From Candidatus Komeilibacteria bacterium (GTDB lineage Bacteria; Patescibacteriota; Patescibacteriia; UBA1558): a stretch of 64,000 nucleotides of DNA. Positions 25,399-63,680 of the stretch are shown piece after piece (position 1 is the first letter of the stretch; each line of letters opens with the position of its first letter). A program made the position numbers and the translations under genes. The stretch is from positions 136,013-200,012 of the forward strand of contig JBLYPX010000001.1 of the NCBI GenBank assembly GCA_048538235.1, read 5' to 3'. Below the pieces are notes generated by a model. It did not search any database and was not told the DNA's origin. It was given only the letters and a program-made list of their open reading frames with translations.

Positions 25399-25404
25399 AT
25401 ATTT

Positions 25405-29086: not shown

Positions 29087-29141
29087 GAATATATTATAGT
29101 TTATTTAACAAAAAAAGCCCAGAATAAATCTGAGCTGTTTT

Positions 29142-29217
29142 TGGTAGCGGGGGTTGGACTCGAACCAACGACCTTCGGGTTATGGGCCCGACGAGCTGCC
29201 AACTGCTCTACCCCGCG
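29142..29217 (-). tRNA. tRNA-Met(CAT), initiator-type, CCA encoded
   Basis: After reverse complement: acceptor CGCGGGG/CCCCGCU with unpaired C1/U72; anticodon arm TCGGG-CCCATAA-CCCGA with three G-C pairs; T-arm GTTGG-TTCGAGT-CCAAC. Confidence 0.7.
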
Positions 29218-29272
29218 TCATAGTTTATATATACTATCCCGGAGGACAATAATTGTCAAGTTAAATTGATTT

Positions 29273-29349
29273 TGGTAGCGGGGGTGGGGTTTGAACCCAC
29301 GACCTCAGCGTTATGAGTGCTGCGCTCTGACCAACTGAGCTACCCCGCC
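29273..29349 (-). tRNA. tRNA with CAT anticodon, elongator-type (tRNA-Met or lysidine-dependent tRNA-Ile2)
   Basis: After reverse complement: acceptor GGCGGGG/CCCCGCU with a G1.U72 wobble pair; anticodon arm CAGCA-CTCATAA-CGCTG (A31/C39 mismatch); 9-nt D-loop; CCA encoded. Confidence 0.65.
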
Positions 29350-47564: not shown

Positions 47565-50486
47565 ATGCTTTTTTTAAAGCGTAAATACTTTATTAAAATG
47601 AGAACTGTTTTAGTGTTAGCTATGCTTTTTGTAACAGTTCTTTTTTTATTCCCTTCAGGTGTTTTAGCGTCAACAGACTTTGGTTTAGCTGATGCTAATC
47701 CAGGTTTAGGCGATACTGACTTAAAGCAAATTATAGTAAATATTATACAAATAGCATTAGGCTTTATTGGGCTTATTGCTGTTATTTTTATACTATATGC
47801 GGGTTTTGTTTGGATGACAGCTGGTGGGGCTGCAGATAAAGTAGATAAAGCTAAAAAAATATTAATAAGAGCAGCAATTGGATTAGTAATTGTATTATCC
47901 TCTTATGCTATAGCAACCTTTATATTTAATGCTATTGGTTGGTCAACTGGAATAGATATGGATGGAACTAGCAGGGATAGATCATATTATTATTCGGGTG
48001 GTTTAGCTGGCGGTGTTATTCAGTCTCATTATCCAGCTAGAGGAGCAACAGGTATTCCAAGAAATGTTTCTATTGTTGTTACTTTTAAAGAATCTATGGA
48101 TGCAGACTCTATCATCTCTGGCGGTCAGTTAACAGATAATATTACTATTGTAGATCAATTTGGAGATGAAGTAGCGGTTGCATCTGCTGAGACAGTGGAT
48201 AATTATTCCTTTTTAATAAACCCAACAGAGCCAGATTATTTAGGAACAGATGCAGATAATATTACCTATGTAGTAAGTTTGGGTTCAGGTATATTAAAGT
48301 CCAATGGAGATCCAGCTTTTGGCAATTTAGGTTCATATGAATGGCAATTTACAACCTCAACAGACTTAGATGTTTCTCCACCTAGAATAGTTTCTGTTTT
48401 ACCAGGGGATGCTAGTACTAATCCAAGAAATGCAGTTGTACAAATTAATTTTAATGAAGCAATTAATCCACTGAGTGTGGCTGGTGATACAGCCGATGGT
48501 TTTGATAATATTATTGCTAGTAATACAGATGGTACAGTTGTAATAAACGGTAAATATACTATTGCTAATGAGTATAAAACAGTTGAATTTTTAACAGATG
48601 ATTTATGTGGTACTAATTCTTGTGGCGGCGATGTATATTGTTTACCTGGTGCTGAGGAATTAGCCTTTAATGTTAAAGCTTCAACTTTAGAAGCAATTAT
48701 CTTTGATGGAGCTGTAGATATGGTTGGTAATTCTTTAGATGGTAATGCTGATGGTCAGGCTGAAGGTCCTGGCGTGGATGATTATGAATGGTCTTTTAAT
48801 ACAACAAATAATGTAGATTTAAGCCCACCTAGTGTTGTTTCTGTAACACCTGGAGTTTCTTCAAATAGTGTAAGCACAAGGGCTAATGTAAAAGTTTCTT
48901 TCGATAAATTAATGATGCTTTCTTCTTTAAACGCAGATTCTTTAATGATTGACCAAGGAGTTAATTATTGGATTAGTAGTACTAATAAAGAAAATCACAC
49001 AGAAAGCTATATTAAACATGATGAATTTGGTGAGTATGTAACATATAATCCACTAGTTACAAATGAGTGTAGAGATTTATACCAGAATTGTTTTAATCCA
49101 ACTTCTGGTCCTGGAGATTTTAGAATTGGTGGAGATGATACAGATAATACTTGGGCGGCCGGATCAAAACTTGGAGATATTAATGATACTCAAGTGCCCG
49201 GACAATTAAGATTAAATTTTAAAGGTGCAGATACTCCATATTTATGGGTAGCTAGGTCTAATTTAGATCAGGTTGTAAGGGTTAGTACAGCTGATGGTAG
49301 TATCACTGGTCCATATATAGTAGGAGATAATCCATCTAGAACATCTGTGGATTCTTATGGCAGAGTATGGGTAGCAAATAGGAATTCTAATGATATTACA
49401 GTTATTTTAACTGATGCGGAGGGAAATGAATTATTGAATGAAACCTTTTCAACTTCACCAGCTAATGGTCCAAGAGGTGTGGCTGTAGATATTAATAATG
49501 ATGTTTGGGTGGCAGGCGGGTGTTATGTAGTAAAGTTGAGTGGTCAAACAAATACTTTAGGAGACAGATTAACCTATTTAAATAAACAGGGTGGTTGTCG
49601 TGCTTATGGAGCGGTTATAGATCGTGATGGACGCTTATGGATACCAGATAGAAATACTGGTAGAGGTTCTGTAATAGATACAGAAACAGCTACAGTAATT
49701 GCTACACCTATGATTGGAAGAGTTGGTCAGTTGTATGGGATAACAGCTGATCCAGATGGAAATATTTGGGAGGCAAATTCGTGGGGTGCGTCAACAGTGT
49801 CAAAGGTTGATGGTTCAGATTATAGCTATGTTGAGTATAGTACTGGTGGTGGTGCACCAAGAGGTGTGGCTGTAGATAAGAATGGCAATATTTGGGTTAC
49901 GAATTGGAGCTTGAATAAAGTTGCGCATTTACGACCAGACGGTACTCTAATAGATCTCTATCCAACAGGTAGTGGGCCACTTGGTGTTTCAGCAGATGCG
50001 GATGGATATGTTTGGGTGGTGAATTATAGTGGTGGTGGACCAGCACCAAGAAACTATACTAATTGTTCTGGTGGAACAACTACAAAATATGATATGGAAG
50101 ATGGTACTCCTATTGGCACATATTGTGTTGGTGGCAATCCTTATACATATAGCGACATGACTGGTTTTGGCTACCAGAGTGTAGTAAAGGGATTAGTAAG
50201 TGGCGAGTGGACATCAAGTGCTATTGATTTGGAAGGTTTATCTAGTGTGGGTGGATTATTTATTCATGGTGATATCCCAGTTGGAGCGAGTGTTAAAATG
50301 CAGGCTAGAGGAGCTGGTTCACAAGCGGGTCTTGCTGAAACCACTTGGCAGGATGTTGCTAGTGATGGAACAGTTAGTATTACAAATGTTTCTTGGTTGC
50401 AGATAAAGCTAGAGCTGCAGTCTGTTCGTATCAATGTGACGCCATCAATAAATTATATAAGTATCAATAAAATAAGCTTAGAATAA
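47565..50486 (+). CDS. Giant surface protein 1 (973 aa): N-terminal T4SS-pilin-like (VirB2/TrbC-like) two-helix module, Ig-like domains, and a C-terminal six-bladed beta-propeller (Vgb-lyase/NHL-like repeats)
   Basis: Signal peptide ...VLA|STDFG. Hairpin helices 'IALGFIGLIAVIFILYAGFVWMTAGG' and 'AIGLVIVLSSYAIATFIF' separated by 'AADKVDKAKKILIR'. 'SPPRIVSV/ SPPSVVSV' Big-like domains. Repeats such as 'PRGVAVDxNGNIWVTN' and 'GITADPDGNIWEAN'. Start may be M at 47598. Confidence 0.65.
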   Translation: MLFLKRKYFIKMRTVLVLAMLFVTVLFLFPSGVLASTDFGLADANPGLGDTDLKQIIVNIIQIALGFIGLIAVIFILYAGFVWMTAGGAADKVDKAKKILIRAAIGLVIVLSSYAIATFIFNAIGWSTGIDMDGTSRDRSYYYSGGLAGGVIQSHYPARGATGIPRNVSIVVTFKESMDADSIISGGQLTDNITIVDQFGDEVAVASAETVDNYSFLINPTEPDYLGTDADNITYVVSLGSGILKSNGDPAFGNLGSYEWQFTTSTDLDVSPPRIVSVLPGDASTNPRNAVVQINFNEAINPLSVAGDTADGFDNIIASNTDGTVVINGKYTIANEYKTVEFLTDDLCGTNSCGGDVYCLPGAEELAFNVKASTLEAIIFDGAVDMVGNSLDGNADGQAEGPGVDDYEWSFNTTNNVDLSPPSVVSVTPGVSSNSVSTRANVKVSFDKLMMLSSLNADSLMIDQGVNYWISSTNKENHTESYIKHDEFGEYVTYNPLVTNECRDLYQNCFNPTSGPGDFRIGGDDTDNTWAAGSKLGDINDTQVPGQLRLNFKGADTPYLWVARSNLDQVVRVSTADGSITGPYIVGDNPSRTSVDSYGRVWVANRNSNDITVILTDAEGNELLNETFSTSPANGPRGVAVDINNDVWVAGGCYVVKLSGQTNTLGDRLTYLNKQGGCRAYGAVIDRDGRLWIPDRNTGRGSVIDTETATVIATPMIGRVGQLYGITADPDGNIWEANSWGASTVSKVDGSDYSYVEYSTGGGAPRGVAVDKNGNIWVTNWSLNKVAHLRPDGTLIDLYPTGSGPLGVSADADGYVWVVNYSGGGPAPRNYTNCSGGTTTKYDMEDGTPIGTYCVGGNPYTYSDMTGFGYQSVVKGLVSGEWTSSAIDLEGLSSVGGLFIHGDIPVGASVKMQARGAGSQAGLAETTWQDVASDGTVSITNVSWLQIKLELQSVRINVTPSINYISINKISLE

Positions 50487-53400
50487 TGAATAAACGTTAT
50501 TCAAAATATATAGTCCCAGTTATCACAATCATTTTATTAATGGTTCCTTTTGCTATATTCGCTTCTACAGATTTTGGTATATCTGATGTAGATGTTGGAC
50601 TAGGGGATAATGATGTAAAAAGTATTGCAACGAATATAATAAGTATAGTTTTAAGTTTTTTGGGTATTATTGCAGTTGGTTTTGTTATTTATGCTGGATT
50701 TCTATGGATGACAGCTGGTGGTAATGCAGACAGAGTAGATAAAGCTAAAAAGATTTTAATAAGAGCGGCTATTGGTATAGTTATTATTTTATCCTCTTAT
50801 GCAATTGCTAGTTTTGTAATAAGTAGTATTAGTGGTGCTACGGGCGATGGTACTGATGGAACGGGTGGTACAAATCCTCCAGGTGGTGGCTTTGGTGGAG
50901 GAGAAGCTAATTTAATTATTAGAAATTGGCAACCATATGATGGTGCTACTGGCACAGCTAGAAATATATTAGTAAGAGTATATTTTAATAAAACAATAGA
51001 CGCGTCTTCTGTAGCAAGTAGTGATTTTACTTTTACTAATACTTCAAATAATACAGCAGTTAATTTTAATGTTACTGTTGTTGGAAGTCGTATAGATATT
51101 CAACCTTTAATTGCTTGTGAGGTTGAAGGAGTGGATTATTGTTTAGGCAATACTCAGGGTTATACAGTAAGTGTAGCTAATGGTTCAATTACATCGCTTG
51201 ATAACAAAGATTTAGTATGTACTACTGGTTGTTCAACAGATTTTGTTACTAGTGATTATATTGATGTTATGCCACCAGTTGTTTCACTGGTTAACCCACA
51301 AGATAATGATACATTTTCTGTAGCTGCTAATGTACCAATTGAAGCCCAAGCAACGGATGATAGAGGTATGGTAGCAGCCCTAACATTTTTAGCAGACAAT
51401 GAAGAAGTTTTGCCAGAGGGCACAGATGGTGCTGAGCCTTGGTTAGGATTGTTTAGTACCGCTGCATATGATGAGGGGGATAGTATAGATATTAGTGCAG
51501 TAGCAGAAGATTTAAGTGGTAATATTGGCAGATCAGGGGCAGTAGATATTCGCATACTCCCTGAGCACTGTTTTAACCAAACTAAAGATGCTGATGAAAC
51601 AAATATAGATTGTGGTGGTTCTTGTGGAGCTTGTTTAGGGGAGAGTTGTAATAGTAGTTCGGGTGTAGATAGTTGTGAACCAAATGATGCCTTGTGTGGT
51701 CAGGGAGTGTGCAATTTAGATTGCATCTGTGCTTCAGCTCCAATAATAACAAATATATCTCCAGACAATGGTGCAGTTGGTAATTATATAACTATAATTG
51801 GCGAAGAATTTGGTAGTTCAACCGGTCAGGTTGTTTTCTTAGGCAGTGCTGATTTTGGCGATGAGATTGTCTCTTCATTAGCAGGTTGTGATACAGCATG
51901 GTCACCATGGCAAGTAATTGTTGAAGTTCCAGAAGGTGTAGTATCTGGGGGAATAAAGATAATTACGAATTCAGGAAGTTTTGACACCACTTTAGATGAT
52001 AGAGGTTGGCAAGGAGATTTTACACTAAACGAAACTGTTAGACCGGGTATTTGTGGAATTACACCAGAAGCTGGCACAGCTTTAAGTACTGTTGATATAG
52101 CTGGTACGCAGTTTGACGAAAGTAAAGACAGGGTTGTTATTGGTGGTGTTAGCGTTTCTAATTCAGATATATCTTTATGGTCAAATAATAATATCACTTC
52201 CTTGGTTCCAAATTTACAACAAGGGAAAGTATCTGTTGCAGTTGGTGTGGGAGATGAATTAAGTAATCCAGTTCAATATGAAGTTGTTCCAGATATATTA
52301 GTTCCATCTATATCATATATAGAGCCAGATAATGGACCAGTTGGTACATATATTACTATTCACGGAAATAATTTTGGGTATAATGAGTCAAATGTATTAG
52401 TTAATTTTGTTAATAATAGTACTACTATCCCAGCAGATATAGATTTCCCAGAAATGTGTGGAGATTACTCTGTGGAGAATACAGAGATTGTGGTTAAGGT
52501 TCCAGAGGGTGTTACTTTAGGATTATGGAATGTAGTTGTAAATAGAGATTTGAAAGATAGCCAACCAGCAAGTTTTGATGTTAATGAAGACGTGCTGTCT
52601 CCAGGTCTTTGTTTATTAGAGCCAAATAATGGTCCAGTTGGAACTATTATTGATGCTTATGGAGAAGGTTTTGGTTCAACTGGTCAGATTTCCTTTTTCG
52701 ATAATATAATAGCCGCTATTAGTAATTGGACAGGCATACATATTGGTTCTCAAGTTCCAGCAGCAGCTAGTACTGGTCCTGTACAAGTTACATCTGGATC
52801 TGGTGGAGTATCTAATTCAATTAATTTTGCAGTTGGTAGTTGTGATGCTAATAGTTGCTCAGTGGGTGATGAGTGTTGTTCAGATGGTATTTGTCGTGAA
52901 ATTGGCTTATGTGAACAATCTCTTGGTGCTGGTGAATATATTTGGTCATTTACAACTGGTCAACAATTACCACCATTTATAGTAGAAGAAGTTTGGCCAT
53001 TATGTGATGAAGCTTGTATTAATACAATGATCGGTGTGAAGTTTAGTAATCCAGTAGATTTAGAAAGTCTGACAGATATTAGCGTAGACGTTAAACAATG
53101 TACAGATGAGAATTGTTCAGCTTTTGTTACAGAAGTTGGTTATACAGAAAATGATGTACCAGTTGGCTATTATGATGACACAAACTATATCCTAAGCATT
53201 AACCCATCTGCAAATTTAGTGCCACAAACATATTATAGGGTGGTGCTTAAATCTGGATCATTAGGAATCGTTAACACAGAAGGTGGTTATTTAGAAAATA
53301 TGAATTATTCAAGTTCAGGTGGTGAGGTAGATAGTTATTCTTGGATTTTTAGAACAGGTGTTGATGAGTGTACTTTAGATAATGTAGAAGTTTTACCAGA

Positions 53401-56400
53401 TGAACGTACTATTACTTCTCAGGAAGAAAGATTAAATATGTCTGCTTATGCATATTCTGAGCCAGATGATTGCTCTCCTCGTGGTCAAATGCTTGATCCT
53501 GCAGAATTTGCTTGGACATGGCAATCTACAAATGTAGGTACAGCAACAGTAGCCGGAACTTTGAATGAGGGAATAGTAACTCCTATTTGGGGTCATCCAG
53601 CAGATGTAAGTATTATTTCTACAGCCGACGGTGTTAGTGGTAATGCTCAAATTACTGTAGATATGGATATTCCAAGAATAGATAATATATCTCCAGATAA
53701 TGGAATGATTCAGGCTGACTTAAAAACTTATGTAACTGTACATGGAGATAATTTTGGAGACGAGCAAGGTTCTACAGTTGTTCTAGTGGGTGGCATTGAG
53801 GCAAAGATTGCAGATTGTTCAAGTGCTTGGTCAAATACACAAATAGTAATTGAAATGCCATTATCTACTAGCACTGGAGATAGAATTAAAATAATAAAAA
53901 CAGGTGGGGATGATGAATCAGATCCTTTTACTGTTAATAGTATTATTCGTCCAGCGCTTTGTAGTATAGATCCAAATTATGGAATAGAGGGAACAAGCGT
54001 TACTCTAGAAGGATATAATTTTGGGGATACACAAAATGATGGCATGGTTTTCTTTGATCAATTAGGAGTAGATAGTATAAGTAGTTGGTCAAACACTAAG
54101 ATAAAAGCATCTGTACCAGCTAATGCTGCTACAGGTCCGGTTACAGTTAATGTGTTAGGCAATGATTCAAATTCATTAGTCTTTTCTTTAGAACCATATA
54201 TTAGTGGTCTAAATCCAGACAATGGAGCAGTAGATAGTTATGTCACAGTTTACGGTGGTAATTTTGGTGACGAGCAGGGTAGCGGTTATGTATTAATTGG
54301 TGGTCGAAGAGCATATCTTGCCCCATGTTTAGGCAGCTGGTCTAATACAAGTATTATTGTTCAAGTGCCAAGTAGTTTAAGTCTTGGTAATAGGAAGGTT
54401 CAAGTTATTACACATTATGGCATTGGTAGTAATGAGGTAAATTATGAGGTAAAAGATGTTCCAGCTAATCCACTATTATGTGAAGTTAATCCTAATTGGG
54501 CTGCTAATAATGAGCAGGTTGGTTTATTAGGAGATAATTTAGGTAGAGCTCCTCGTTTATCTGATCAAATAGAAGTAGATACAGATTTGGGAGCAAGTTA
54601 CACAAATTCTTCTGGTAATTCATGCATGAGTAATAATGGTTCATATGTAAGTGGTTGTTCAAATTATTGGGTTGAGTACCAGTTCAATTTTACAGATAGT
54701 AATTATTATAATGCTTGGGCAGAAACCAGTAATTATAGTACAGATTTAACGGATCAAAGTATTTACCACAACGTTAATATATATATTGATGGCACATACG
54801 CTGGTTATTTTAGTAATATAGCTTCCCTTGATCATCAGTTTGGTGGCGTAGATTTAGGTTGGGTAAATGCTGGTGTTCATACAATTAGATATTATTGGAC
54901 AAATGATTGGTGTGGTGGTTGTAGTAATGGAACGGGGGATTCAAATATTAGGATTTACAATGTTGGTATTAATACAGGAATACCAACTAGCTACCCAGTG
55001 TTTACAAGAAACTACACAGCTTCTACTGAGGGTTGGTCAAACAGTAGTGTGTTAACACGTATAGATAGTGAAATACAGTCTGGTCCAGTTTCTGTTATTA
55101 AAGAAGTGGTTACTGGCCAGCAGTGCGCTGGCTTCCATATTGGTAGTTGGTGTCCAGGAGGCGTTTATGAAGATATTACAGAGAATATTGAAAGTAATAG
55201 TGTAGATTTTAATAAAGGATGTGTAATTGGAACAACTTCATCTCGAGAAGAAAATTATATTCCAACTGTTGCTGCTAATAGCGAAGCTGTTGGTACATTA
55301 GCAACCGATGGTACATATATCTATGGTAAGAGTTGGAGTAGTTATGATGAGTATGATGTAGTTATATCTAAGATAGGTACTGGTTATAATAATACAGTAC
55401 TGGGAGAAGACTATGGAGATTTAGCAATAGTTTCTAGCAGTATTACCATGACTTATCATCCAGATGGTTATATATACAATGGTTATTCATCAGATGGTCA
55501 TAGTTTACAGCGTATAAATGTTGCTACTGGGGTTGTAGATAACAGTGTTGTGATTACAGATGGTTTATTAAACAGAAATACTGGTAATACTTATTCAGAG
55601 GCTAGGGGTGACAACTTAGTAACCTCAGACGGAACATATATATATAATTTAGCGTTTGGAACCCATGCTTGTCCAAATAATTATTCTAGTCGCTGTTATG
55701 ATGGATTTAAAGTAAGGGTATTTGATCCAATGAATAATTGGAAGTTAGTTAGAGAGTGGGAAACAACTACAAATGGATCTTTTTATACCGATGGTATTGT
55801 AGCTGATGGTAAATATATTTACGCCATTGAGTGGGGTGGTTTACATAGAATACGTATGATGGATATTCAGACTGGTGAATATATTGCTCAGTGGATATCT
55901 GAACAAGGCAGGCCAACTGGTCAGGGTAATGATATTATTTCTGGTCAGTATGATTGGGTTAATGACAGAATATGGCTAGGTGATTTGGTTGATCATAGTA
56001 GATATCCTGGCCCAGCTTATATATATAAATATACTAGCTGTCACGACTATGACGTGAATGACATTATAATAGAGGATGAAGGTTATTGTGGAGATGGACT
56101 CATTGCTTCAGGCGAAACTTGTGATGACGGCAATACTGTAAGCGGGGATGGCTGTTCTAATGTTTGTGAGATAGAATTAAGTGATCTTCAGGCAGATATT
56201 AATTATGAGGTTGGTTGGAAATATTGGAGTAGTAATAATTGGGTCCATGTAGATTTTAGAGATACATATTCAAATCCAGTTTTGATACTAAGTCCAGTTA
56301 AACACGAAGGTGGTGACACTGCTACCTTTAGAATAAAGAATTTATCTAGTTCTGGTTTTGATTTTAGATTACAAGAATCTAATAGTCATGATGATCCTCA

Positions 56401-59400
56401 TTGTTGTGATAAAGAAGTCTATTATTTTGTAGCTGAAGCAGGTGTTTATCAATTAGAAGGCGGTATAACAATTGAAGCTATGAATACTGTTCTTGATTCA
56501 GTTACACCAAATTATACTCAGCTTCCTTATGATATTGAATTTACAGAAGTTCCTACAACATTATCTCAGGTAATTACAAGTGGTGATGGCAATGATCCTA
56601 ATTTTGATCCAAAAGGAACTATTAATTATATAAAGACAAGACAGAATAATGTTTCGGCTAATAGTTTTTATATTGCTTTAGAAACAGACACTACTTATTC
56701 AACTCATGTACCAGAAACAGTAAGTTGGTTAGCCATAACTCAAACAGATGGCAATTTAAATAATAGTTTATTTGAATCAAAAACTATTAATAATCTTATT
56801 AATAATGACACTTCAAATATTACTTTTGATAATTCTTTTGCTAGACCAACATTTTTTGCAAATAGTTTAACTATAAATGATCCAGCTCCTGGTGTTTTAC
56901 GATGGATAGCTCTAGAACCTACATCGGTTGGTGTGCGTTTTGAGAATGATGACAGTTCTATTCACGCAACTCCAGAAGATATTAATTATTTAGTTATTAA
57001 TCTACCCGAGAATATTGATCCACCAGCACCAGATACATGTGGTAATGGCGAAATTGAAGCTGGTGAAACTTGTGATAGTTGTCCAGACGATGTTGGCGAA
57101 TGTAGTGATAGTGATTTGTGTGGAAACTTTAGTTTAGACACTGGTGAAGCTTGTGATATTAGTGAAGTTGGTGATCCAATATTAGGTGGACAGACTTGTG
57201 ATTCTTTAGAAGGTTTTTCTGGTGGTAACTTAGATTGTTCTGTGAATTGTGAATTAATAACAGATGCATGTGTTATTGGTAATCCAGCAAGTAATATTTG
57301 TTTAAACACAGAGATATCTGCTGAATTTGATTCATTAATGGATCAAAGTAGCTTTGCCGGTAATGTTCATTTTGAAAAGGTCACTAATACTTGTGAGACA
57401 GGTTCAAATATTGGCAATGCGTGTGATACAGACGAAGATTGTGGTGATGGTGTTTGTGATCTAGATGTAGTAGTTAGTTATGATTTAGAGAATTTGCCAC
57501 CAAATGATTCTCAATACTCAAAGTTATATATATATCCAGAAAATGGTCTATTAGATATTAATTCTGAATACAGAGCAACAGTAAGGGGTGGAACTAGTGG
57601 TGTTCAAGATATTGAAGGTTATACTTTAGCTGCGGATTATGTTTGGCCATTCTATACTGGAGATACAGAGTGTTTAATAAGTAGAGTGGAAATTGAACCA
57701 AGTAGTTATCAATTTAATAGTGCAGATGAAATAGTTAACTTCACAGTTCATGGATATGATGAAAATGGTATTTCTGTTATAGGAGATTATTCATGGAGTA
57801 TTCAAGGTAATGCAGATTTATTAAATATAGTTGGAGGAAATACCCAGACTGTACAAGTTTCCCCAACAGATACTGGTAATGGTGAGTTAAGTTTAGAAGC
57901 TAGTGTATATGCTAGCGAAGATTCACAAGGTGTGGCTCAAGCTCCAATAGATATATTTATGTGTAATATACCGTGGAATTATGAGAATAAAACATATAAC
58001 TTTAAGACAAGATATTGTAGGGGTGAAGGTGTAAACCATGTATATAATAGTGGTTTTGAAATGGATGATAACAGCGACTTAAGACCAGATGTTTGGTTTG
58101 ATGATATCTATGATGAAGATTGGCAGGATATTTCTTTAGTAAGTTCAGATTTAGAAGGTGGTGGAAATTATGCTGTGCAAATAAATAATTTACAGGACGA
58201 TCGTTCTGTAGGAGATAGAACAGGTATTGCTTCAGGAATAATAGATGTTAAAGATGCTATCTATACTTTATCTGCTCAGATTAAGGGTGAAACTAATGGT
58301 CAATTAGCATATTTTGGTCTTAAATTTATGAATGAAAATGGTCAGGCACTTGGCGGAAACGGTGGCTACCATTATCCAGTACTTAACCACGCTTCAATAT
58401 CTGATGAATGGACATTGTATAGTGCTAGTTTTAGGCCATCTGAATTATTTACTGGTACTGAGAAGGTTCAGGTTGTATTTATTCTTGCAGGTAGTGATGA
58501 ATTAGATAAACATGTAGCCTGGATAGATAATGTTCAATTAGAGTTAGGTTCAGAAGTTAGTGTTTATGAAGAATCTAATTTATTACCATCATTAAATATA
58601 TCTCCAGATGCTGCTTCTGGTGATGAGCTGCTAAATAGATTGTTCTTACAATCTGACTACAATATTCCAGATGCCATTGGTTTAAGAGTGTTTACTAACT
58701 TTGAACACCAAGCACCAATTGTTTGGTATCAAGATAATGTTACGAATATTGGTAATCCAGCTACTATAGATGTTGGCGGTTATTCAGCATTACAAGAGGG
58801 TAGAACAACTTATGTGAATGCTGCTAATAATAGTAGTAATAATATTTATACAAACATATTTGTTTTGTCATATACAGATGGTGCTAATGCAACTACGCAA
58901 GATATATTTACTCAGATGTACGAGAATTGGACGTTCAATAGTAATATAGATTCATATTATGAGAAACAACAACTCGCTAGAGACACAAAACGTTTTGAGA
59001 ATATTGTTCAAATGTCTGAGCAATTAGACGATTATTATCAATTAAATGGTGGTTATCCTCAATTACAGGCAGGGACATATTTAGCTGGTACAACAGTTTC
59101 TGTTTGGGATTCTTGGAACGCTACTTTTGGTGCAGAGCTTGGTGGTGTGCCAGTAGATCCAATCAATGAACATGGATTATGTAATGGTGCATACGATCCA
59201 ATAACCTGTTGGAATCCAGACGATTTGCGTTATGTTTGCCCATTAAACTCCTATGTTTACAGATATGACTATGTAAATTCGGATTATTATCTATATAGTA
59301 ATTTTGAATATGAAGGGGTTGTTTGGAAGGGAGATTTTGATTTGACCATAGCTAGTAATCCGCAGTGCGATAATGTAATTTTAAACAATGGTGTTATGTC

Positions 59401-59431
59401 TTCCATTTCTCCAGCACAAAATATTGAATAA
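50486..59431 (+). CDS. Giant surface protein 2 (2981 aa): paralogous T4SS-pilin-like N-terminal module, at least 8 IPT/TIG domains, Myxococcus-type Cys-rich repeats, beta-rich regions and a CBM4/9-like domain
   Basis: N-terminus about 65% identical to the upstream protein. IPT/TIG consensus 'P.I..I.PDNG.VG.YITI.G.NFG' recurs at least 8 times. 'CGDGLIASGETCDDGNTVSGDGCSNVCE' and 'CGNGEIEAGETCDSC...' Cys repeats. 'FEMDDNSD...GNYAVQI...VAWIDNVQLE' carbohydrate-binding-module-like jelly roll. Confidence 0.65.
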   Translation: MNKRYSKYIVPVITIILLMVPFAIFASTDFGISDVDVGLGDNDVKSIATNIISIVLSFLGIIAVGFVIYAGFLWMTAGGNADRVDKAKKILIRAAIGIVIILSSYAIASFVISSISGATGDGTDGTGGTNPPGGGFGGGEANLIIRNWQPYDGATGTARNILVRVYFNKTIDASSVASSDFTFTNTSNNTAVNFNVTVVGSRIDIQPLIACEVEGVDYCLGNTQGYTVSVANGSITSLDNKDLVCTTGCSTDFVTSDYIDVMPPVVSLVNPQDNDTFSVAANVPIEAQATDDRGMVAALTFLADNEEVLPEGTDGAEPWLGLFSTAAYDEGDSIDISAVAEDLSGNIGRSGAVDIRILPEHCFNQTKDADETNIDCGGSCGACLGESCNSSSGVDSCEPNDALCGQGVCNLDCICASAPIITNISPDNGAVGNYITIIGEEFGSSTGQVVFLGSADFGDEIVSSLAGCDTAWSPWQVIVEVPEGVVSGGIKIITNSGSFDTTLDDRGWQGDFTLNETVRPGICGITPEAGTALSTVDIAGTQFDESKDRVVIGGVSVSNSDISLWSNNNITSLVPNLQQGKVSVAVGVGDELSNPVQYEVVPDILVPSISYIEPDNGPVGTYITIHGNNFGYNESNVLVNFVNNSTTIPADIDFPEMCGDYSVENTEIVVKVPEGVTLGLWNVVVNRDLKDSQPASFDVNEDVLSPGLCLLEPNNGPVGTIIDAYGEGFGSTGQISFFDNIIAAISNWTGIHIGSQVPAAASTGPVQVTSGSGGVSNSINFAVGSCDANSCSVGDECCSDGICREIGLCEQSLGAGEYIWSFTTGQQLPPFIVEEVWPLCDEACINTMIGVKFSNPVDLESLTDISVDVKQCTDENCSAFVTEVGYTENDVPVGYYDDTNYILSINPSANLVPQTYYRVVLKSGSLGIVNTEGGYLENMNYSSSGGEVDSYSWIFRTGVDECTLDNVEVLPDERTITSQEERLNMSAYAYSEPDDCSPRGQMLDPAEFAWTWQSTNVGTATVAGTLNEGIVTPIWGHPADVSIISTADGVSGNAQITVDMDIPRIDNISPDNGMIQADLKTYVTVHGDNFGDEQGSTVVLVGGIEAKIADCSSAWSNTQIVIEMPLSTSTGDRIKIIKTGGDDESDPFTVNSIIRPALCSIDPNYGIEGTSVTLEGYNFGDTQNDGMVFFDQLGVDSISSWSNTKIKASVPANAATGPVTVNVLGNDSNSLVFSLEPYISGLNPDNGAVDSYVTVYGGNFGDEQGSGYVLIGGRRAYLAPCLGSWSNTSIIVQVPSSLSLGNRKVQVITHYGIGSNEVNYEVKDVPANPLLCEVNPNWAANNEQVGLLGDNLGRAPRLSDQIEVDTDLGASYTNSSGNSCMSNNGSYVSGCSNYWVEYQFNFTDSNYYNAWAETSNYSTDLTDQSIYHNVNIYIDGTYAGYFSNIASLDHQFGGVDLGWVNAGVHTIRYYWTNDWCGGCSNGTGDSNIRIYNVGINTGIPTSYPVFTRNYTASTEGWSNSSVLTRIDSEIQSGPVSVIKEVVTGQQCAGFHIGSWCPGGVYEDITENIESNSVDFNKGCVIGTTSSREENYIPTVAANSEAVGTLATDGTYIYGKSWSSYDEYDVVISKIGTGYNNTVLGEDYGDLAIVSSSITMTYHPDGYIYNGYSSDGHSLQRINVATGVVDNSVVITDGLLNRNTGNTYSEARGDNLVTSDGTYIYNLAFGTHACPNNYSSRCYDGFKVRVFDPMNNWKLVREWETTTNGSFYTDGIVADGKYIYAIEWGGLHRIRMMDIQTGEYIAQWISEQGRPTGQGNDIISGQYDWVNDRIWLGDLVDHSRYPGPAYIYKYTSCHDYDVNDIIIEDEGYCGDGLIASGETCDDGNTVSGDGCSNVCEIELSDLQADINYEVGWKYWSSNNWVHVDFRDTYSNPVLILSPVKHEGGDTATFRIKNLSSSGFDFRLQESNSHDDPHCCDKEVYYFVAEAGVYQLEGGITIEAMNTVLDSVTPNYTQLPYDIEFTEVPTTLSQVITSGDGNDPNFDPKGTINYIKTRQNNVSANSFYIALETDTTYSTHVPETVSWLAITQTDGNLNNSLFESKTINNLINNDTSNITFDNSFARPTFFANSLTINDPAPGVLRWIALEPTSVGVRFENDDSSIHATPEDINYLVINLPENIDPPAPDTCGNGEIEAGETCDSCPDDVGECSDSDLCGNFSLDTGEACDISEVGDPILGGQTCDSLEGFSGGNLDCSVNCELITDACVIGNPASNICLNTEISAEFDSLMDQSSFAGNVHFEKVTNTCETGSNIGNACDTDEDCGDGVCDLDVVVSYDLENLPPNDSQYSKLYIYPENGLLDINSEYRATVRGGTSGVQDIEGYTLAADYVWPFYTGDTECLISRVEIEPSSYQFNSADEIVNFTVHGYDENGISVIGDYSWSIQGNADLLNIVGGNTQTVQVSPTDTGNGELSLEASVYASEDSQGVAQAPIDIFMCNIPWNYENKTYNFKTRYCRGEGVNHVYNSGFEMDDNSDLRPDVWFDDIYDEDWQDISLVSSDLEGGGNYAVQINNLQDDRSVGDRTGIASGIIDVKDAIYTLSAQIKGETNGQLAYFGLKFMNENGQALGGNGGYHYPVLNHASISDEWTLYSASFRPSELFTGTEKVQVVFILAGSDELDKHVAWIDNVQLELGSEVSVYEESNLLPSLNISPDAASGDELLNRLFLQSDYNIPDAIGLRVFTNFEHQAPIVWYQDNVTNIGNPATIDVGGYSALQEGRTTYVNAANNSSNNIYTNIFVLSYTDGANATTQDIFTQMYENWTFNSNIDSYYEKQQLARDTKRFENIVQMSEQLDDYYQLNGGYPQLQAGTYLAGTTVSVWDSWNATFGAELGGVPVDPINEHGLCNGAYDPITCWNPDDLRYVCPLNSYVYRYDYVNSDYYLYSNFEYEGVVWKGDFDLTIASNPQCDNVILNNGVMSSISPAQNIE

Positions 59432-59488: not shown

Positions 59489-62400
59489 ATGAAAAGAAAA
59501 ATTATTACAATTATGACTGTTATGGCATTTATTTTTACTTTAATGCCACAATCATATGTTAGTGCTCAAACAATCGATCAGTGTGAGCAAGTTTTAGCAT
59601 CAGGACAACCAGAATTGTCTACTTGGGAAGATGATGCAGGAGCAACGCCTGCTAATAATTTTTATTTCATGGATAAACTGGGTGACTGGATAAAGCTCAG
59701 ACTTTTTTCTTTTACCAAGGATGCAAGAATTAATACTTTGTTAGATCAGGCACAAGAAAGAGTAGGCGAGCTTGAACGTTTACAGAGGCAGAACAATCTT
59801 AAACCTAGTTATGTTAATAGAATTGTAGATAGCTACAATAATATTATGGCAGAAGTTAGTACGAGATTATCTAATATGCAGGGCGATGGTGTAGATATGA
59901 CAGATATAATCTCTAGAGTAACAATACTAAGTGCTAAAAATAAAACTATTATAGCTGGTATTTTATCTAAGGTTTCTGCACAGAACTATAATACAATACA
60001 GTCTGCATATAATCAGTCTGGTACAGCGTTTTGTGAAGTTGTAGATAGTTGGGTTTCAAGAGAGAATCAATGTAATGATACTATTCTATTAACACAAGAG
60101 AGTTCTAATTCATTTAATAATATTGCAGGCGAGATAGCCAATGTTGGAGAAACAAGTTCTTCAATAGAAAGTTCATTTGAACAAGTTAGTTCGTATTTAG
60201 ATAGAGTGGAAAATATTAGTGTAGATATAAATAATAGTAAAGAAGATTTTAGTGGAGCTGTTAGTAGTTCTAGTTTGAGCTTAAGTGATAAAGAACAAGT
60301 ATTAAATGATAAGCTAGATGATTTTAGAGGGGATTATTTTTACCTTTTAAATAATCAACCTCAAGTAGATACTGCTATTAGATCTATCATAAGCTATAGA
60401 TTAAACGACAACCCTAGAAGTTTAGTTGCAAGAGCTAGGGCTAGCGCTGCTTTAATGGATGTTGCTTTAAACAATGCAGAAGTGGGAGCAGACATTGCAT
60501 ATATTGAAAATATAATGTCTGTTAATCTGTCTGAAGATAAAGATTTAAATGATTTATTAGATAATTTAAAGTCTGCAAAAGAAAGTAGTTTGCAAACTGA
60601 AATAAATACGCTATCTTCATTAGTTTCTTCACAACAGGATGAAATTGAAGCATTAGAAGAAAGTAAAAATGTCTGTAGGAGTTTAAAGAACGATTTTTCA
60701 GAAATATTAGACAGGTTAGATACTGGAAGATTTTCTCAGGCTAGAAATGGTGTCTTAGCTTTACAAGCTGAAGCTAGTAATTTAAATAGCACATATTTAC
60801 CAGCTTGTGGAATGATGCCAGTTATAGACACTCTTTATGATATTCTAATTAATGGTAATGCTTTGGACCCAAATAATAGTTGTAGTAGTCAATCATATAT
60901 AGATAATTATGTAGCTGAGATAGTTGCTTGGGGAGAGGATCGTTTAGCATTATGGGATACAATGTTAGATCAACACGATGGTATTGTAGATGAATTGAAC
61001 AGTCAACTAGATTCATATGAAATGATAAGTGTAAATAAGGGATCAGTTGCAACAAGTTTAGATTCACACTTTTCTTCCTATGCAAATGTTAATGCTGCAC
61101 AAGTTTCTTCAGCTGAATTAGATAGCATTCAAACTGAAATAGGAGATTTAGAAAGAAGATTAAATTCGGCTGAATCAGATGTGGTGGATTATGAAGGATA
61201 TAAGAATAATGCTAATGCGTCTTTACAGGTTGCTAATAGTTCATATGTTGAAGCGCAAACAGCTGTAAGTAAGGCAGAGTCAGAATTGCAAACAGCAGAT
61301 ACTAATGTGAAGCAGGCACAAGCCGCAGCAGATCAAGCAAGAGCAGATTACCTAAAAATAGAACAATCTTTAAATGAACTTAATACAATTAAAAACAGTA
61401 CATTATCTGAATTAAACGCTGCTAAAGATTCGCTTGATGCATTAAATACAGAAAAAGTTGATTTAGAGAAACAGATTGATACTTTAAAAGTTTCTTTAAA
61501 TAATAATTTTAGTATAGCTTCTATTAATCAAGATAACTTTCAATTGGAAGAAGAAATCTTATTGGACCTATCTGAAGATATTAATTTTGATAGAAGTGCA
61601 GTTGAACTAGAGGCTTTAGATGCAGAATTAAAAAATTTAAATGAAGACATAGTGTTAAAATCTGCAGAAGTAGATCAATTACAGTCAAATTACGACAAGG
61701 TGTTAGCAGACTATAATTCTACTTTAACAGAATACAATAATAAAGAAGACGATGTGGTTCAGGCAGATTTTGGAGTATATGCAACTACGCAGGTTTATAC
61801 ACAAAAAGAAAGTGCATATAATTCTGCAGTATCTGGTTTGAATACAATCTCTAACAATTTAAATAGTCTTCAAGCTAGTTATGATGCAGCTGTATCAGAT
61901 TATACAGAAGCTGTTGTTTTAAGAGATATTATTAGTAGTGATTTAGATAATAAGAATAATGAGTATAATAATGCGGTTGCTAAAGCTGTGAAACTTGAAG
62001 TTATTAGACAGGAACTAGATTCGTTCATTACAGATAAATTTGATAGCACAGTCAGTAATTATAGAACTAGCGTTGATTCTTTAGGAGTTTTAAACAATGA
62101 TTGGAAAACTGTTGCCTTTGAATATAATGAAATAGCAGATAATATTGCAGACTTAAGAACTACTATGAATGGAACAAATCTTGCTAATATTAGAACTGAG
62201 CTTAATAGCATGAAGACATTAGCGGGCAACTTGGAAACTATGGTTGAATATAATATGCCAGCTCAACAAATTAGTAATCAATTAGATACAATAGATAGAT
62301 TAGTAAGTATGAGAATGCTTGGACAAGCTAGGATAGATAATATCAAAGCATCGGTTCAAACGAGTGTGGTAAATTTACAGAATATTACTTGTTCCGAAGC

Positions 62401-62917
62401 TCAACCATTATATAATCAAGGTATAACAGATATTTGTAATAACTTCTCTATTGGAGATTATCTTAATACTTGTGATGTTATAAACAATTTAGAAATTCAA
62501 ATCGTAGATACTTGTCAGTTACAACCTGTAAATAATTGTGGTAATACAATCGTGGATGATGGAGAACAATGTGATGACGGTAATAAATTATCTGGCGATG
62601 GTTGTAGTGCATTATGTCAAAGTGAAATAACATCATATTGTGGTGATGGCCGCATTCAAAGACCAAATAGTTTTGGTGTGAATGAAGAATGTGAGAATGT
62701 ACCAGCAAATAATGAAGACGGTGATGGTTGTTCATCACAATGTACGAATGAAGTTCAAGCAGTTTGTGGTGATGGTATTTTACAACAACCAAATAGTAAT
62801 GGTTTTAGTGAACAGTGTGATGATGGTAATAGGTTTGCTGGTGATGGCTGTAATAACCTATGTCAGCTAGAAAGAGGTTCACAAAAAACTATAAACATTA
62901 GAAGAACAATTCCATAA
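59489..62917 (+). CDS. Secreted giant coiled-coil protein (1142 aa) with three C-terminal Myxococcus-type Cys-rich repeats
   Basis: Signal peptide MKRKIITIMTVMAFIFTLMPQSYVSA|Q. Heptad-like helical low-complexity sequence for about 950 aa. C-terminal 3x 'CG.G....GE.CDDGN...GDGC...C..E'. Confidence 0.6.
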   Translation: MKRKIITIMTVMAFIFTLMPQSYVSAQTIDQCEQVLASGQPELSTWEDDAGATPANNFYFMDKLGDWIKLRLFSFTKDARINTLLDQAQERVGELERLQRQNNLKPSYVNRIVDSYNNIMAEVSTRLSNMQGDGVDMTDIISRVTILSAKNKTIIAGILSKVSAQNYNTIQSAYNQSGTAFCEVVDSWVSRENQCNDTILLTQESSNSFNNIAGEIANVGETSSSIESSFEQVSSYLDRVENISVDINNSKEDFSGAVSSSSLSLSDKEQVLNDKLDDFRGDYFYLLNNQPQVDTAIRSIISYRLNDNPRSLVARARASAALMDVALNNAEVGADIAYIENIMSVNLSEDKDLNDLLDNLKSAKESSLQTEINTLSSLVSSQQDEIEALEESKNVCRSLKNDFSEILDRLDTGRFSQARNGVLALQAEASNLNSTYLPACGMMPVIDTLYDILINGNALDPNNSCSSQSYIDNYVAEIVAWGEDRLALWDTMLDQHDGIVDELNSQLDSYEMISVNKGSVATSLDSHFSSYANVNAAQVSSAELDSIQTEIGDLERRLNSAESDVVDYEGYKNNANASLQVANSSYVEAQTAVSKAESELQTADTNVKQAQAAADQARADYLKIEQSLNELNTIKNSTLSELNAAKDSLDALNTEKVDLEKQIDTLKVSLNNNFSIASINQDNFQLEEEILLDLSEDINFDRSAVELEALDAELKNLNEDIVLKSAEVDQLQSNYDKVLADYNSTLTEYNNKEDDVVQADFGVYATTQVYTQKESAYNSAVSGLNTISNNLNSLQASYDAAVSDYTEAVVLRDIISSDLDNKNNEYNNAVAKAVKLEVIRQELDSFITDKFDSTVSNYRTSVDSLGVLNNDWKTVAFEYNEIADNIADLRTTMNGTNLANIRTELNSMKTLAGNLETMVEYNMPAQQISNQLDTIDRLVSMRMLGQARIDNIKASVQTSVVNLQNITCSEAQPLYNQGITDICNNFSIGDYLNTCDVINNLEIQIVDTCQLQPVNNCGNTIVDDGEQCDDGNKLSGDGCSALCQSEITSYCGDGRIQRPNSFGVNEECENVPANNEDGDGCSSQCTNEVQAVCGDGILQQPNSNGFSEQCDDGNRFAGDGCNNLCQLERGSQKTINIRRTIP

Positions 62918-62936
62918 AATATTAAATAAAAATATT

Positions 62937-63680
62937 ATGTTTGAAGATTTACAATCAGATCAACAGGCTGGTGTACCAAAACCAGAACCAGTAAATACAC
63001 CTAAACAGCCACCAATGGCGCCAAAGCCAGAACAGGCAGGGGAGATAGAAGACATCTTAGCAGATGTTGATTCTTCAGCTCCTTCAGTAACTCCAAAACA
63101 ACCTCCAATGCCAGCACAGCCTCCTGTGCAAGATATTGGTCCAGCTCAACCTTTAACAGATTTACCAGGCGCTGAAGTAATGGATAAGAGTAAACGTTCA
63201 GGCGGATCAAAGAAATTATTCTATTTAGTTGGAATTGTTGTGGTAGCCGCTATCGTTATTATTGGTGTTATCAAATTCACTTCTTCTGCAAGTTATGATG
63301 AGTATGAAAACTTTGTAACAGAGCCAGTTGTTAATAATCAAGTAACAGATAATACAGAAGATACAACCGAGCCAGAAGTAATAGATGAGCCAGAAGTTGT
63401 TGATGAGGTTGTAGAAAAAGATATAGTAGATGATGATGGCGATGGTATAACTAATGAACAAGAATTAGCAATTGGAACCGATCCATTTAATCCAGATAGT
63501 GATAATGATGGTTTATTTGATAAAGAAGAGGTGGTAACTTATGGAACAGATCCACTAAATGAAGACTCAGATGGCGATGGATATTTAGATGGTGCTGAAG
63601 TAAAAGCAGGATATAATCCAAGCGGCCCAGGCGAATTATTGAAATTACCACCATTAGATAATGGAACAAATAATAATTAA
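62937..63680 (+). CDS. Bitopic membrane protein: Pro-rich N-terminal region, one TM helix, acidic linker, thrombospondin type-3-like Ca-binding repeats
   Basis: PKQPPM repeats. TM 'LFYLVGIVVVAAIVIIGVI'. 'DDDGDGITNEQE...DPFNPDSDNDGLFDKEE...DPLNEDSDGDGYLDGAE' are Dx[DN]xDGxxD motifs. Confidence 0.55.
   Translation: MFEDLQSDQQAGVPKPEPVNTPKQPPMAPKPEQAGEIEDILADVDSSAPSVTPKQPPMPAQPPVQDIGPAQPLTDLPGAEVMDKSKRSGGSKKLFYLVGIVVVAAIVIIGVIKFTSSASYDEYENFVTEPVVNNQVTDNTEDTTEPEVIDEPEVVDEVVEKDIVDDDGDGITNEQELAIGTDPFNPDSDNDGLFDKEEVVTYGTDPLNEDSDGDGYLDGAEVKAGYNPSGPGELLKLPPLDNGTNNN

Follow-up and report, generated by a model that had tools for sequence, protein, structure and literature searches.

A giant IPT/TIG-repeat protein of Candidatus Komeilibacteria with a VirB2-like N-terminal hairpin and a fibrillar adhesin-like architecture

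Introduction

Most Patescibacteria probably spend their lives in attachment to other cells; to our knowledge, molecules that recognise the host have been identified only in a few Saccharibacteria, where they are type IV pili. A 64,000-nucleotide stretch of the genome of a Candidatus Komeilibacteria bacterium (assembly GCA_048538235.1, contig JBLYPX010000001.1, positions 136,013 to 200,012 of the forward strand; hereafter the window, with positions numbered from its first letter) encodes a protein of 2981 residues, referred to here as the giant protein, and raises the question of how a molecule of this size is held at the cell surface and what it may bind there. An initial annotation, made from the letters of the window alone, had read at least eight IPT/TIG domains, two Myxococcus-type cysteine-rich blocks and a CBM4/9-like jelly roll behind a pilin-like anchor, and had taken this repertoire to be eukaryote-like and to point to carbohydrate-directed adhesion. 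We followed up this reading with profile scans, homologue searches, structure predictions and a comparison of gene order. The results make it moderately probable, in our judgement, that the giant protein is a membrane-anchored, fibrillar, adhesin-type surface protein of the Komeilibacteria cell, with a conserved stalk and distal modules that are exchanged between relatives. The result is one of annotation, obtained for a protein that is functionally uncharacterised, and does not amount to a demonstrated mechanism.

Results

A single reading frame encodes a pilin-like hairpin followed by a long series of further domains

All of the features described in the initial annotation (51728-58480) lie inside one open reading frame on the forward strand. 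Its product is 100% identical to an NCBI entry (P0001) named 'IPT/TIG domain-containing protein' of Candidatus Komeilibacteria bacterium, which is encoded on an 860 kb contig, and a generic database name and domain annotation therefore already exist for it. Pfam and NCBIfam profiles were scanned with their gathering cut-offs against the whole protein and against separate segments. The N-terminal part consists, in order, of a predicted signal peptide, a T4SS_pilin hairpin, a Gly-rich linker, a Big_5 domain, a Big_7 domain, a first Cys knot and TIG units 1 to 4. The middle part holds a second Cys knot, another Big_5 domain, an Ig-like-looking stretch, TIG units 5 to 7, a TIG unit 8 that carries a nested insert, and a propeller-like region. 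The distal part is formed by a canonical Cys-rich repeat, an orphan region, a second Cys-rich block, a third Big_5 domain, another Ig-like-looking stretch, a CBM4/9-like module and a conserved C-terminal domain. The coordinates of these elements are collected in Table 1. The protein contains 72 cysteine residues, arranged in clusters. A motif scan of all 2981 residues found no LPxTG sequence, and the Pfam and NCBIfam scans contained no autotransporter or type I secretion family.

The anchor is single and N-terminal. Hydropathy peaks are centred on residues 14-24, 53-70 and 98-109, and the profile contains no hydrophobic segment after residue 130. The initial annotation's 'pilin-like anchor' is borne out by PF18895 (T4SS_pilin), which scores 28.5 bits on the whole protein and 30.7 bits on the segment against a cut-off of 26.6, while two related profiles stay below their cut-offs (PF04956 TrbC, 22-25.7 bits against 27.9; NF045849, 26.3 bits against 40). 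The region has the features of a VirB2-type pilin: behind a predicted signal peptide, two hydrophobic helices are joined by a short basic loop, which reads DRVDKAKKILIR or, in another delimitation, GGNADRVDKAKKILIR. A VirB2-type hairpin would be an unusual anchor for such a protein: after cleavage of the signal peptide, and if the known topology of VirB2 applies, both of its ends would lie outside the cytoplasmic membrane and the basic loop inside. Because this topology leaves both hairpin ends outside, the C-terminal extension of 2870 residues is predicted to be extracellular.

Eight TIG units and other Ig-like domains form a putative braced stalk

The hairpin is followed by a series of Ig-like domains, the most numerous of which are TIG units. 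PF01833 matches the whole protein with E=1.9e-42 and 143.6 bits, in six stretches over threshold. When the units were scanned singly, TIG units 1, 2, 3, 5, 6 and 7 all exceeded the gathering cut-off of 20.9 bits, with scores of 28.5-42 bits (28.5, 39 and 42 bits for units 1, 2 and 3, respectively), and units 4 (scanned as residues 704-790) and 8 gave no Pfam match. We therefore scored each unit with a profile hidden Markov model (HMM) built from the other TIG units of the same protein, the tested unit being omitted, and compared the scores with those of 2000 shuffled sequences each. Units 1 to 7 reached 35-69 bits, including 46.5 bits for the divergent unit 4, and the best shuffle did not exceed 14.3 bits. 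In unit 8 the first 27 positions of the own-unit HMM align at residues 1329-1355 and positions 34-85 at residues 1505-1552; when the two halves were spliced, the unit scored 26.2 bits, while none of its shuffles went beyond 7.9 bits. Eight TIG units are thus present, one of them interrupted and two divergent, in agreement with the 'at least 8' of the initial annotation. At the DNA level the units are 66-72% identical at best, and we therefore take them to be old duplications and not a recently expanded array.

Other modules accompany the TIG units. The first Cys knot stands directly before the first TIG block, and the second follows that block ahead of the second Big_5 domain; neither knot matches a Pfam or NCBIfam profile. 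A stretch of ~100 residues after the second Big_5 domain looks Ig-like and is treated here as a putative domain.

The insert within TIG unit 8 separates the two halves of that domain and is found in the homologues P0002, P0003 and P0006, directly after the GDN[FL]G turn, whereas the close homologues P0004 and P0005 have an uninterrupted TIG unit 8, without the insert, that scores 45.7 bits. It contains two Cys pairs and has no significant match in Pfam, NCBIfam or a profile search of the sequences in the Protein Data Bank (PDB).

One of the two cysteine-rich blocks belongs to a known repeat family

The initial annotation had assigned two blocks to the cysteine-rich repeat family first described in Myxococcales. 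The assignment stands for the first of them (56078-56190), which TIGR02232 matches with 56.5 bits on the segment and 47.2 bits on the whole protein against a cut-off of 20.8, and PF13948 (DUF4215) with 32.5 bits against a cut-off of 27. It does not carry over to the second (57037-57270), where TIGR02232 aligns over profile positions 2-16 only, with 7.2 bits and E=4.4, and the Pfam scan gave no PF13948/DUF4215 match. The N-terminal half-motif of the repeat, CG[ND][GF]x4-7GExCD, does occur twice in this block, at residues 2185 and 2212; three copies of it are present in the giant protein and none in 20000 shuffled sequences. The second block is possibly a related, degenerate Cys module, and we do not claim its membership in the TIGR02232 family.

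A CBM4/9-like module with a hypervariable core

The module that the initial annotation had named a CBM4/9-like jelly roll (58058-58480) falls short of the Pfam threshold and is reached through intermediate sequences. In the segment scan PF02018 aligns over profile positions 3-131 of 136 but reaches only 15.1 bits (E=0.03) where the gathering cut-off is 25.9, and it is not reported in the scan of the whole protein. When the CBM region was aligned in the giant protein and six homologues, PF02018 was found in three of the seven segments, with a best E=3.4e-4, and the closest homologue, P0002, carries a precomputed match to the family. An exhaustive phmmer search with residues 2505-2680 against 1.84 billion representative sequences returned 11 matches. 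Four of these are long (~110-155 residues) and span most of the domain, and all four are CBM_4_9 proteins: P0101 (1.3e-10), P0103 (4.5e-8), P0104 (2.6e-6) and P0110 (7.6e-4). PF02018 is the top family of each matched segment, with 23.6, 22.2, 25.0 and 37.5 bits, respectively. A single-sequence search of the PDB sequences with the CBM region found no match.

Two AF2 structure predictions were made, both within the C-terminal 482 residues. In the model of residues 2500-2981 the CBM part has low confidence (pLDDT 35-80), and the fold matches obtained with it are to be read accordingly. Foldseek placed it closest to 1gu3 (CBM4), 2y64 (CBM4-2), 8xmz, 2zez (CBM16) and 4xup (CBM22), with E ~1e-4 and TM ~0.5; the sugar-binding domain of Fbs1 and MAM are further top matches, and the remaining ones are longer alignments of high rmsd to multidomain chains such as CDTb. 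The entry 8xmz is a porphyran-binding CBM, which the sequence profile of the orthologues also matches weakly (E=0.04), along with 4mgq. We accept the assignment because the intermediates, the low-confidence fold matches and the orthologue profile agree, and the module is likely to be a CBM4/9-like jelly roll in fold and superfamily. Glycan binding by it is plausible, and the carbohydrate-directed adhesion proposed in the initial annotation is an inference from the fold.

The core of the module (residues 2536-2667) differs strongly between relatives. It is 80% identical in P0002 and 12-18% identical in P0003-P0005, although identity to the giant protein in the latter is 75-81% over the 36 residues that precede the core and 63-70% over the C-terminal domain. 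This pattern looks like cassette replacement or diversifying selection. The likeness to CBM families 4/9 and to the CBM16/22 jelly rolls consists of a near full-length, low-scoring profile alignment, of CBM_4_9 proteins as nearest relatives and of the top fold matches of the low-confidence model, whereas the module of the giant protein differs from CBM families 4/9 in its sub-threshold score, in its hypervariable core and in having no glycoside hydrolase or lyase attached to it.

A conserved C-terminal domain and two regions without assigned families

The reading frame continues beyond the end of the features in the initial annotation, at 58480, into a domain of ~250 residues that is covered by 53-67 of 100 listed homologues and, along with the stalk, is the hallmark of the family. 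Modelled alone, it gave a confident AF2 structure (pLDDT 88, pTM 0.86). No Pfam family was found in 19 members of this domain, Foldseek returned no PDB or BFVD match at E<=1e-3, and a single-sequence search of PDB sequences with the C-terminal part gave E values of 0.44 or worse. The best Foldseek matches, which are weak (E ~1e-2), are the type VI secretion (T6SS) chaperones of the Eag/SciW type, EagT6 and SciW. The domain contains the motif helix-YPxL-GT[YF]...W.SW...DPxN...YxY, which prompted the idea that its second half is a GspG-like pseudopilin. This idea was rejected: hhalign alignments to E. coli GspG, GspH, GspI and GspJ span 28 columns at most with probabilities of 6-9%, and no pilin occurs among the top 50 Foldseek matches in the PDB. 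In many homologues the domain is internal, with ~1000 more residues after it. A scan of a genome collection with this domain found two loci only, L005 (CAZCFX010000002.1) and L006 (CAZUKY010000007.1), at 33% identity. Both lie on contigs of metagenome-assembled genomes (MAGs) that carry the unchecked label 'uncultured Gammaproteobacteria', with 35% and 55% G+C in the fetched stretch, respectively, and the copy in L006 is part of an open reading frame of at least 937 residues that runs off the fetched stretch.

Between TIG unit 8 and the canonical Cys-rich repeat, DG.YIY motifs recur at residues 1608, 1715 and 1774. This region (residues ~1556-1860) is 33-49% identical to parts of five smaller proteins (P0111-P0115). 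It has no Pfam match, and profile searches of PDB sequences gave nothing significant; the best PDB sequence match, itself non-significant (E=0.19), is a glutamine cyclotransferase, which we take to be a beta-propeller. The region may be propeller-like, and we use that name for it. The 286-residue orphan region that separates the two Cys-rich blocks is covered by none of the 100 listed homologues, the closest relatives included, and a dedicated homologue search with it returned nothing at E<=1e-3. Its faint threefold repeat of ~95 residues is visible with MAFFT and not with BLAST; a likeness to H-type lectins is no more than a guess for this region.

Conserved stalk and exchanged distal modules in a large family of homologues

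The giant protein is a fairly typical, functionally uncharacterised member of a large family. At least 100 homologues match it at E<=1e-10; most of those listed have 2900-3700 residues, and their named sources are mostly Patescibacteria, Uhrbacteria, Komeilibacteria and Magasanikbacteria. With at least 100 homologues of the same architecture and mostly patescibacterial named sources, the description of the repertoire as eukaryote-like becomes unnecessary. By the precomputed Pfam annotation, PF18895 is present in at least 81 of the 100 listed homologues.

Coverage by these homologues divides the protein into zones. Residues 1-1350, that is the anchor and most of the stalk, are covered by 61-98 of the 100, residues 1350-2700 by 0-19 (with none over 1900-2200), and residues 2700-2950 again by 53-67. 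In the variable zone the precomputed Pfam annotation of the homologues lists Laminin_G_3, VWA, FG-GAP, C-type lectin, sialidase-type lectin, fn3 and CBM_4_9 modules. Three sites behave like cassettes: the TIG8 insert, the stretch between the propeller-like region and the second Cys-rich block, which is replaced by a different and longer sequence in P0002-P0006, and the CBM core. P0003-P0005 each have a precomputed Laminin_G_3 match somewhere in the protein. Across the family, then, conservation extends to the stalk and to the C-terminal domain, while the distal modules are swapped. A diversity-generating retroelement was considered as the source of the cassette variability and rejected, as no pairs of template and variable repeats were found in the 64 kb.

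Table 1. Coordinates of the giant gene, of the parts of its product and of the associated neighbouring genes in the window
Feature	Residues	Position	Strand	Evidence
Giant gene, 2981 aa		50486..59431	+	single open reading frame (ORF list and translation)
Predicted signal peptide (cleavage between ...AIFA and ST)	1-26	50486..50563	+	basic N-terminus, then hydrophobic segment; cleavage site read by eye
T4SS_pilin (VirB2/TrbC-like) two-helix membrane hairpin	46-111	50621..50818	+	PF18895
Big_5 (SbsA-type) Ig-like domain 1, after Gly-rich linker	145-241	50918..51208	+	PF13205, 32.2 bits (cut-off 23.6)
Big_7 Ig-like domain	264-331	51275..51478	+	PF17957, 39.9 bits (cut-off 24.1)
Cys knot 1, 10 Cys, contains ...NIDCGGSCGAC...	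362-415	51569..51730	+	Cys clustering
TIG units 1-4	418-518, 519-604, 606-703, 705-787	51737..52846	+	PF01833, 4 stretches in segment
Cys knot 2, 6 Cys	786-809	52841..52912	+	Cys clustering
Big_5 domain 2	844-933	53015..53284	+	PF13205, 27.2 bits
TIG units 5-7	1062-1154, 1155-1236, 1237-1326	53669..54463	+	PF01833, 40.4, 36.0 and 37.0 bits individually
TIG unit 8, split	1329-1356 (N half), 1499-1552 (C half)	54470..55141	+	HMM from the protein's own TIG units
Insert nested in TIG unit 8, ~142 aa	1357-1498	54554..54979	+	separates the two halves of TIG unit 8
Repeat region with DG.YIY motifs (possibly propeller-like)	~1556-1860	55151..56065	+	motif recurrence
Canonical Cys-rich acidic repeat (C1868, C1879, C1890, C1894)	1866-1897	56081..56176	+	TIGR02232, PF13948
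Orphan region, 286 aa	1898-2183	56177..57034	+	three weak ~95-aa internal repeats
Cys block 2, 10 Cys (11th of the cluster at residue 2272)	2185-2262	57038..57271	+	Cys clustering, half-motifs
Big_5 domain 3, with small Cys-rich loop at 2303-2324	~2263-2395	57272..57670	+	PF13205, 30.6 bits, 2 stretches
CBM4/9-like jelly roll (likely); variable core 2536-2667 at 58091-58486	2518-2667	58037..58486	+	PF02018 sub-threshold, intermediates, fold matches
Conserved C-terminal domain, ~250 aa	2727-2977	58664..59416	+	homologue coverage, AF2
Upstream paralogous partner, 973 aa: T4SS_pilin hairpin, three Big_5, NHL/SGL-type beta-propeller		47565..50486	+	Pfam
Downstream 1142-aa protein: DUF5667, long coiled coil, three C-terminal Cys-rich repeats		59489..62917	+	Pfam
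Downstream 247-aa membrane protein with bacterial TSP3 repeats		62937..63680	+	PF18884, 76.5 bits

The giant gene is paired with a second pilin-fusion gene in a conserved neighbourhood

The giant gene lies among ordinary chromosomal genes in a window of ~33% G+C. Upstream of it are the genes for signal peptidase I (lepB), HisRS (hisS) and YqeY; the other strand carries LytR-CpsA-Psr, Der GTPase and Mfd genes, and envelope-polysaccharide genes are located further off. Its immediate upstream neighbour encodes a paralogous partner that likewise begins with a T4SS_pilin hairpin. The two proteins are 38% identical over the first ~285 residues, and the pilin-coding parts of their genes are 71% identical over 300 nt of DNA. 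The TAA stop codon of the partner gene overlaps the ATG of the giant gene (TAATG, 50484-50488); the same 1-nt overlap is found in a second locus, L002, and the pairing itself is kept in L002, L003 and L004.

Two genes downstream of the giant gene also recur with it and look co-oriented and co-conserved with it. The product of the first contains three TIGR02232/DUF4215-type repeats that match residues 1863-1899 of the giant protein in BLAST, and a DUF5667/coiled-coil gene follows the giant gene in L002 as well. In L002 and L004 the TSP3 gene, too, has kept its place downstream of the giant gene. A close relative (GCA_041294325) and an Uhrbacteria MAG (GCA_030688135) share the gene order, which runs signal peptidase, HisRS, YqeY, a pilin fusion of 650-990 residues, the giant protein, in some cases the DUF5667/coiled-coil/Cys-repeat protein, then the TSP3 protein, YbeY and diacylglycerol kinase.

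Discussion

A probable membrane-anchored fibrillar adhesin and the alternatives to it

The domain map contains the features by which fibrillar adhesins are operationally recognised, namely a tandem Ig-like stalk, a lectin-type domain and a surface anchor. In the mechanism that we propose, the giant protein would be exported by the Sec system and its signal peptide removed, after which the hairpin (residues 46-111) would hold it in the cytoplasmic membrane with the basic loop on the cytoplasmic side. The remaining ~2870 residues would extend outside, where about 13 Ig-like domains (three Big_5, one Big_7 and eight TIG) with Cys knots among them would make up a stalk braced by disulfides, and this stalk would present, at its distal end, the domain nested in TIG unit 8, the propeller-like region, the Cys-rich repeats, the orphan triple repeat, the CBM4/9-like jelly roll and the C-terminal domain. 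Ligand specificity would reside in the exchanged distal modules, and the ligand, carried by a host or partner cell, would most likely be a glycan or a surface polymer. We take the distal modules to be the specificity determinants because they are exchanged between relatives that keep the stalk and the C-terminal domain, and a glycan is the most economical guess for the ligand because CBM-like and lectin-type modules occur in the family. The carbohydrate part, taken by itself, is less probable in our judgement than the adhesin model. Most domain calls of the initial annotation hold, and an adhesin-type reading fits the anatomy, but more than half of the architecture had escaped it: the three Big_5 domains and the Big_7 domain, both Cys knots, the domain nested in TIG unit 8, the propeller-like region of ~300 residues, the 286-residue orphan region and the 250-residue C-terminal domain. 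Several observations weigh against an adhesin. No function can be assigned to about 40% of the ectodomain, which comprises the insert in TIG unit 8, the propeller-like and orphan regions and the C-terminal domain. The CBM-like module lies under the Pfam threshold and was modelled with low confidence, and a gene order that is kept among housekeeping genes in different classes would suit a constitutive component of the envelope as well as a host-specific adhesin.

The last of these points leads to the reading that the giant protein, together with the pilin-fusion and TSP3 proteins, forms a constitutive envelope or surface-layer scaffold whose variable modules serve in immune or phage evasion. 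The operon-like block among housekeeping genes, with an order kept between Komeilibacteria-like and Uhrbacteria genomes, and the translational coupling of the two pilin-fusion genes by an overlap that recurs in L002 would both fit such a structure, as would the TSP3 repeats in the neighbouring protein; repeats of this type bind calcium and are typical of extracellular matrix-type assemblies. We nevertheless consider a scaffold unlikely, since the lectin-type and VWA modules in the variable zone of the family are typical of binding proteins and not of lattice formers, no S-layer homology or self-assembly domains were detected in the Pfam scans of the giant protein, and the replacement of sequence at three cassette sites is more easily explained by changing ligands. 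The N-terminal match to the T4SS pilin family, which is over threshold, and the tandem of two pilin-type genes could instead mean that the giant protein belongs to a T4SS-type pilus, as a subunit or as the adhesin at its tip, with the VirB2-like domain polymerising with small VirB2-like pilins by way of the patescibacterial type IV secretion machinery and so displaying the ectodomain on a filament; VirB2-like pilins are widespread in those Patescibacteria that have VirB4 (PMC12102498). Against this, no VirB4, VirB6 or coupling protein was found among the Pfam-scanned reading frames of the window (all those of at least 300 residues included), there is no small pilin gene in the 64-kb window, the locus sits among housekeeping genes in three genomes, and by our estimate an appendage of 2870 residues on every subunit would be sterically hard to accommodate in a helical pilus, so that a rare or tip subunit would be the best case; a pilus subunit is, in our view, very unlikely. 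Least probable of all is a surface-tethered enzyme or toxin-delivery protein whose unassigned regions act on the host envelope while the CBM targets polysaccharide. In the proteins that match the CBM module, CBM_4_9 modules do sit together with heparinase-type lyases and a peptidase, and a C-terminal domain without a known fold relative makes a new activity conceivable; yet no catalytic family was found anywhere in the giant protein at E<=10, and the C-terminal domain is conserved across the family, unlike the variable part of polymorphic toxins, and is followed by ~1000 residues in many homologues.

A further idea takes up the gene pair itself. In one large branch of Patescibacteria, comprising the sequences labelled Komeilibacteria, Uhrbacteria and Magasanikbacteria, the VirB2 fold of conjugative pilins might have been co-opted to head both members of a conserved, translationally coupled pair of surface proteins (650-990 and ~3000 residues). 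The two could co-assemble through their hairpins into a fibre, independent of or derived from a T4SS, with exchangeable lectin cassettes and the previously undescribed 250-residue domain, which lacks a structural relative, at its tip. We regard this as quite unlikely and offer it as speculation; were it true, ultra-small bacteria would possess a host-attachment organelle of a new type. In the fibrillar adhesin that we favour, the stalk is conserved and three distal cassettes are prone to exchange, as would be expected if the protein determined host specificity. Tractable targets for further work are the CBM-like cassette, whose core differs nearly completely between orthologues, and the confidently modelled C-terminal domain without a known fold relative.

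Relation to known systems

Classical VirB2 pilins have ~70-120 residues and are encoded beside virB4 and virB6. The giant protein shares with VirB2/TrbC pilins, and with the patescibacterial PF18895 family (PMC12102498), the predicted signal peptide, the two hydrophobic helices and the short basic loop. It differs from them in that the hairpin makes up the first 4% of a 2981-residue protein, in the absence of T4SS genes among the scanned reading frames of the 64 kb, and in its sub-threshold scores with PF04956 and NF045849. Small VirB2-like pilins of Patescibacteria are often encoded in arrays of 2-11 genes (PMC12102498), and PF18895 is abundant in freshwater-specific protein clusters (10.1101/2025.04.23.650224).

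With known fibrillar adhesins, such as the RTX adhesins with ligand-binding tips and the giant Ig-repeat adhesins of Gram-positive bacteria (bioRxiv 10.1101/2025.09.30.679566, PMC10619420), the giant protein has in common a long Ig-like array, distal lectin- or CBM-type modules, a single anchor at one end and a very large size. Its anchor, however, is an N-terminal VirB2/TrbC-like hairpin and not an LPxTG/sortase signal, its stalk repeats are old and diverged and not recent, near-identical copies, and the organism is presumably a single-membrane patescibacterium. Also comparable are the giant membrane proteins of the epibiont Vampirococcus lugosii, a member of the candidate phyla radiation (CPR, another name for Patescibacteria), which have been proposed to mediate attachment to the host (PMC8080830). 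These are likewise multi-kiloresidue predicted membrane or surface proteins, rich in interaction domains and encoded in a reduced CPR genome. Compared by description only, their domain sets (WD40, PKD, saposin, DUF11, integrin and fibronectin) are different, and neither a VirB2-like anchor nor the family of the giant protein is described there. The Pam pili of CPR bacteria (10.64898/2026.03.03.709456) are a different system, in which Ig-like pilins assemble by donor-strand exchange. A limited literature search found no description of VirB2-like hairpins that anchor giant Ig-repeat proteins, or of the conserved gene pair. Within the scope of that search, fibrillar adhesins as a type are already known, whereas a VirB2-type anchor on a giant Ig-repeat protein, although annotated in Pfam, is apparently undescribed.

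Other features of the window

The envelope-polysaccharide region of the window contains, at 23380-27144, genes for two probable surface proteins, one of 672 residues with GHL15 and FG-GAP repeats and one of 579 residues with DUF11. Two 49-nt repeats that are 82% identical and spaced 131 nt apart lie at 29136-29315; they resemble the 3' halves of two neighbouring minus-strand tRNA genes.

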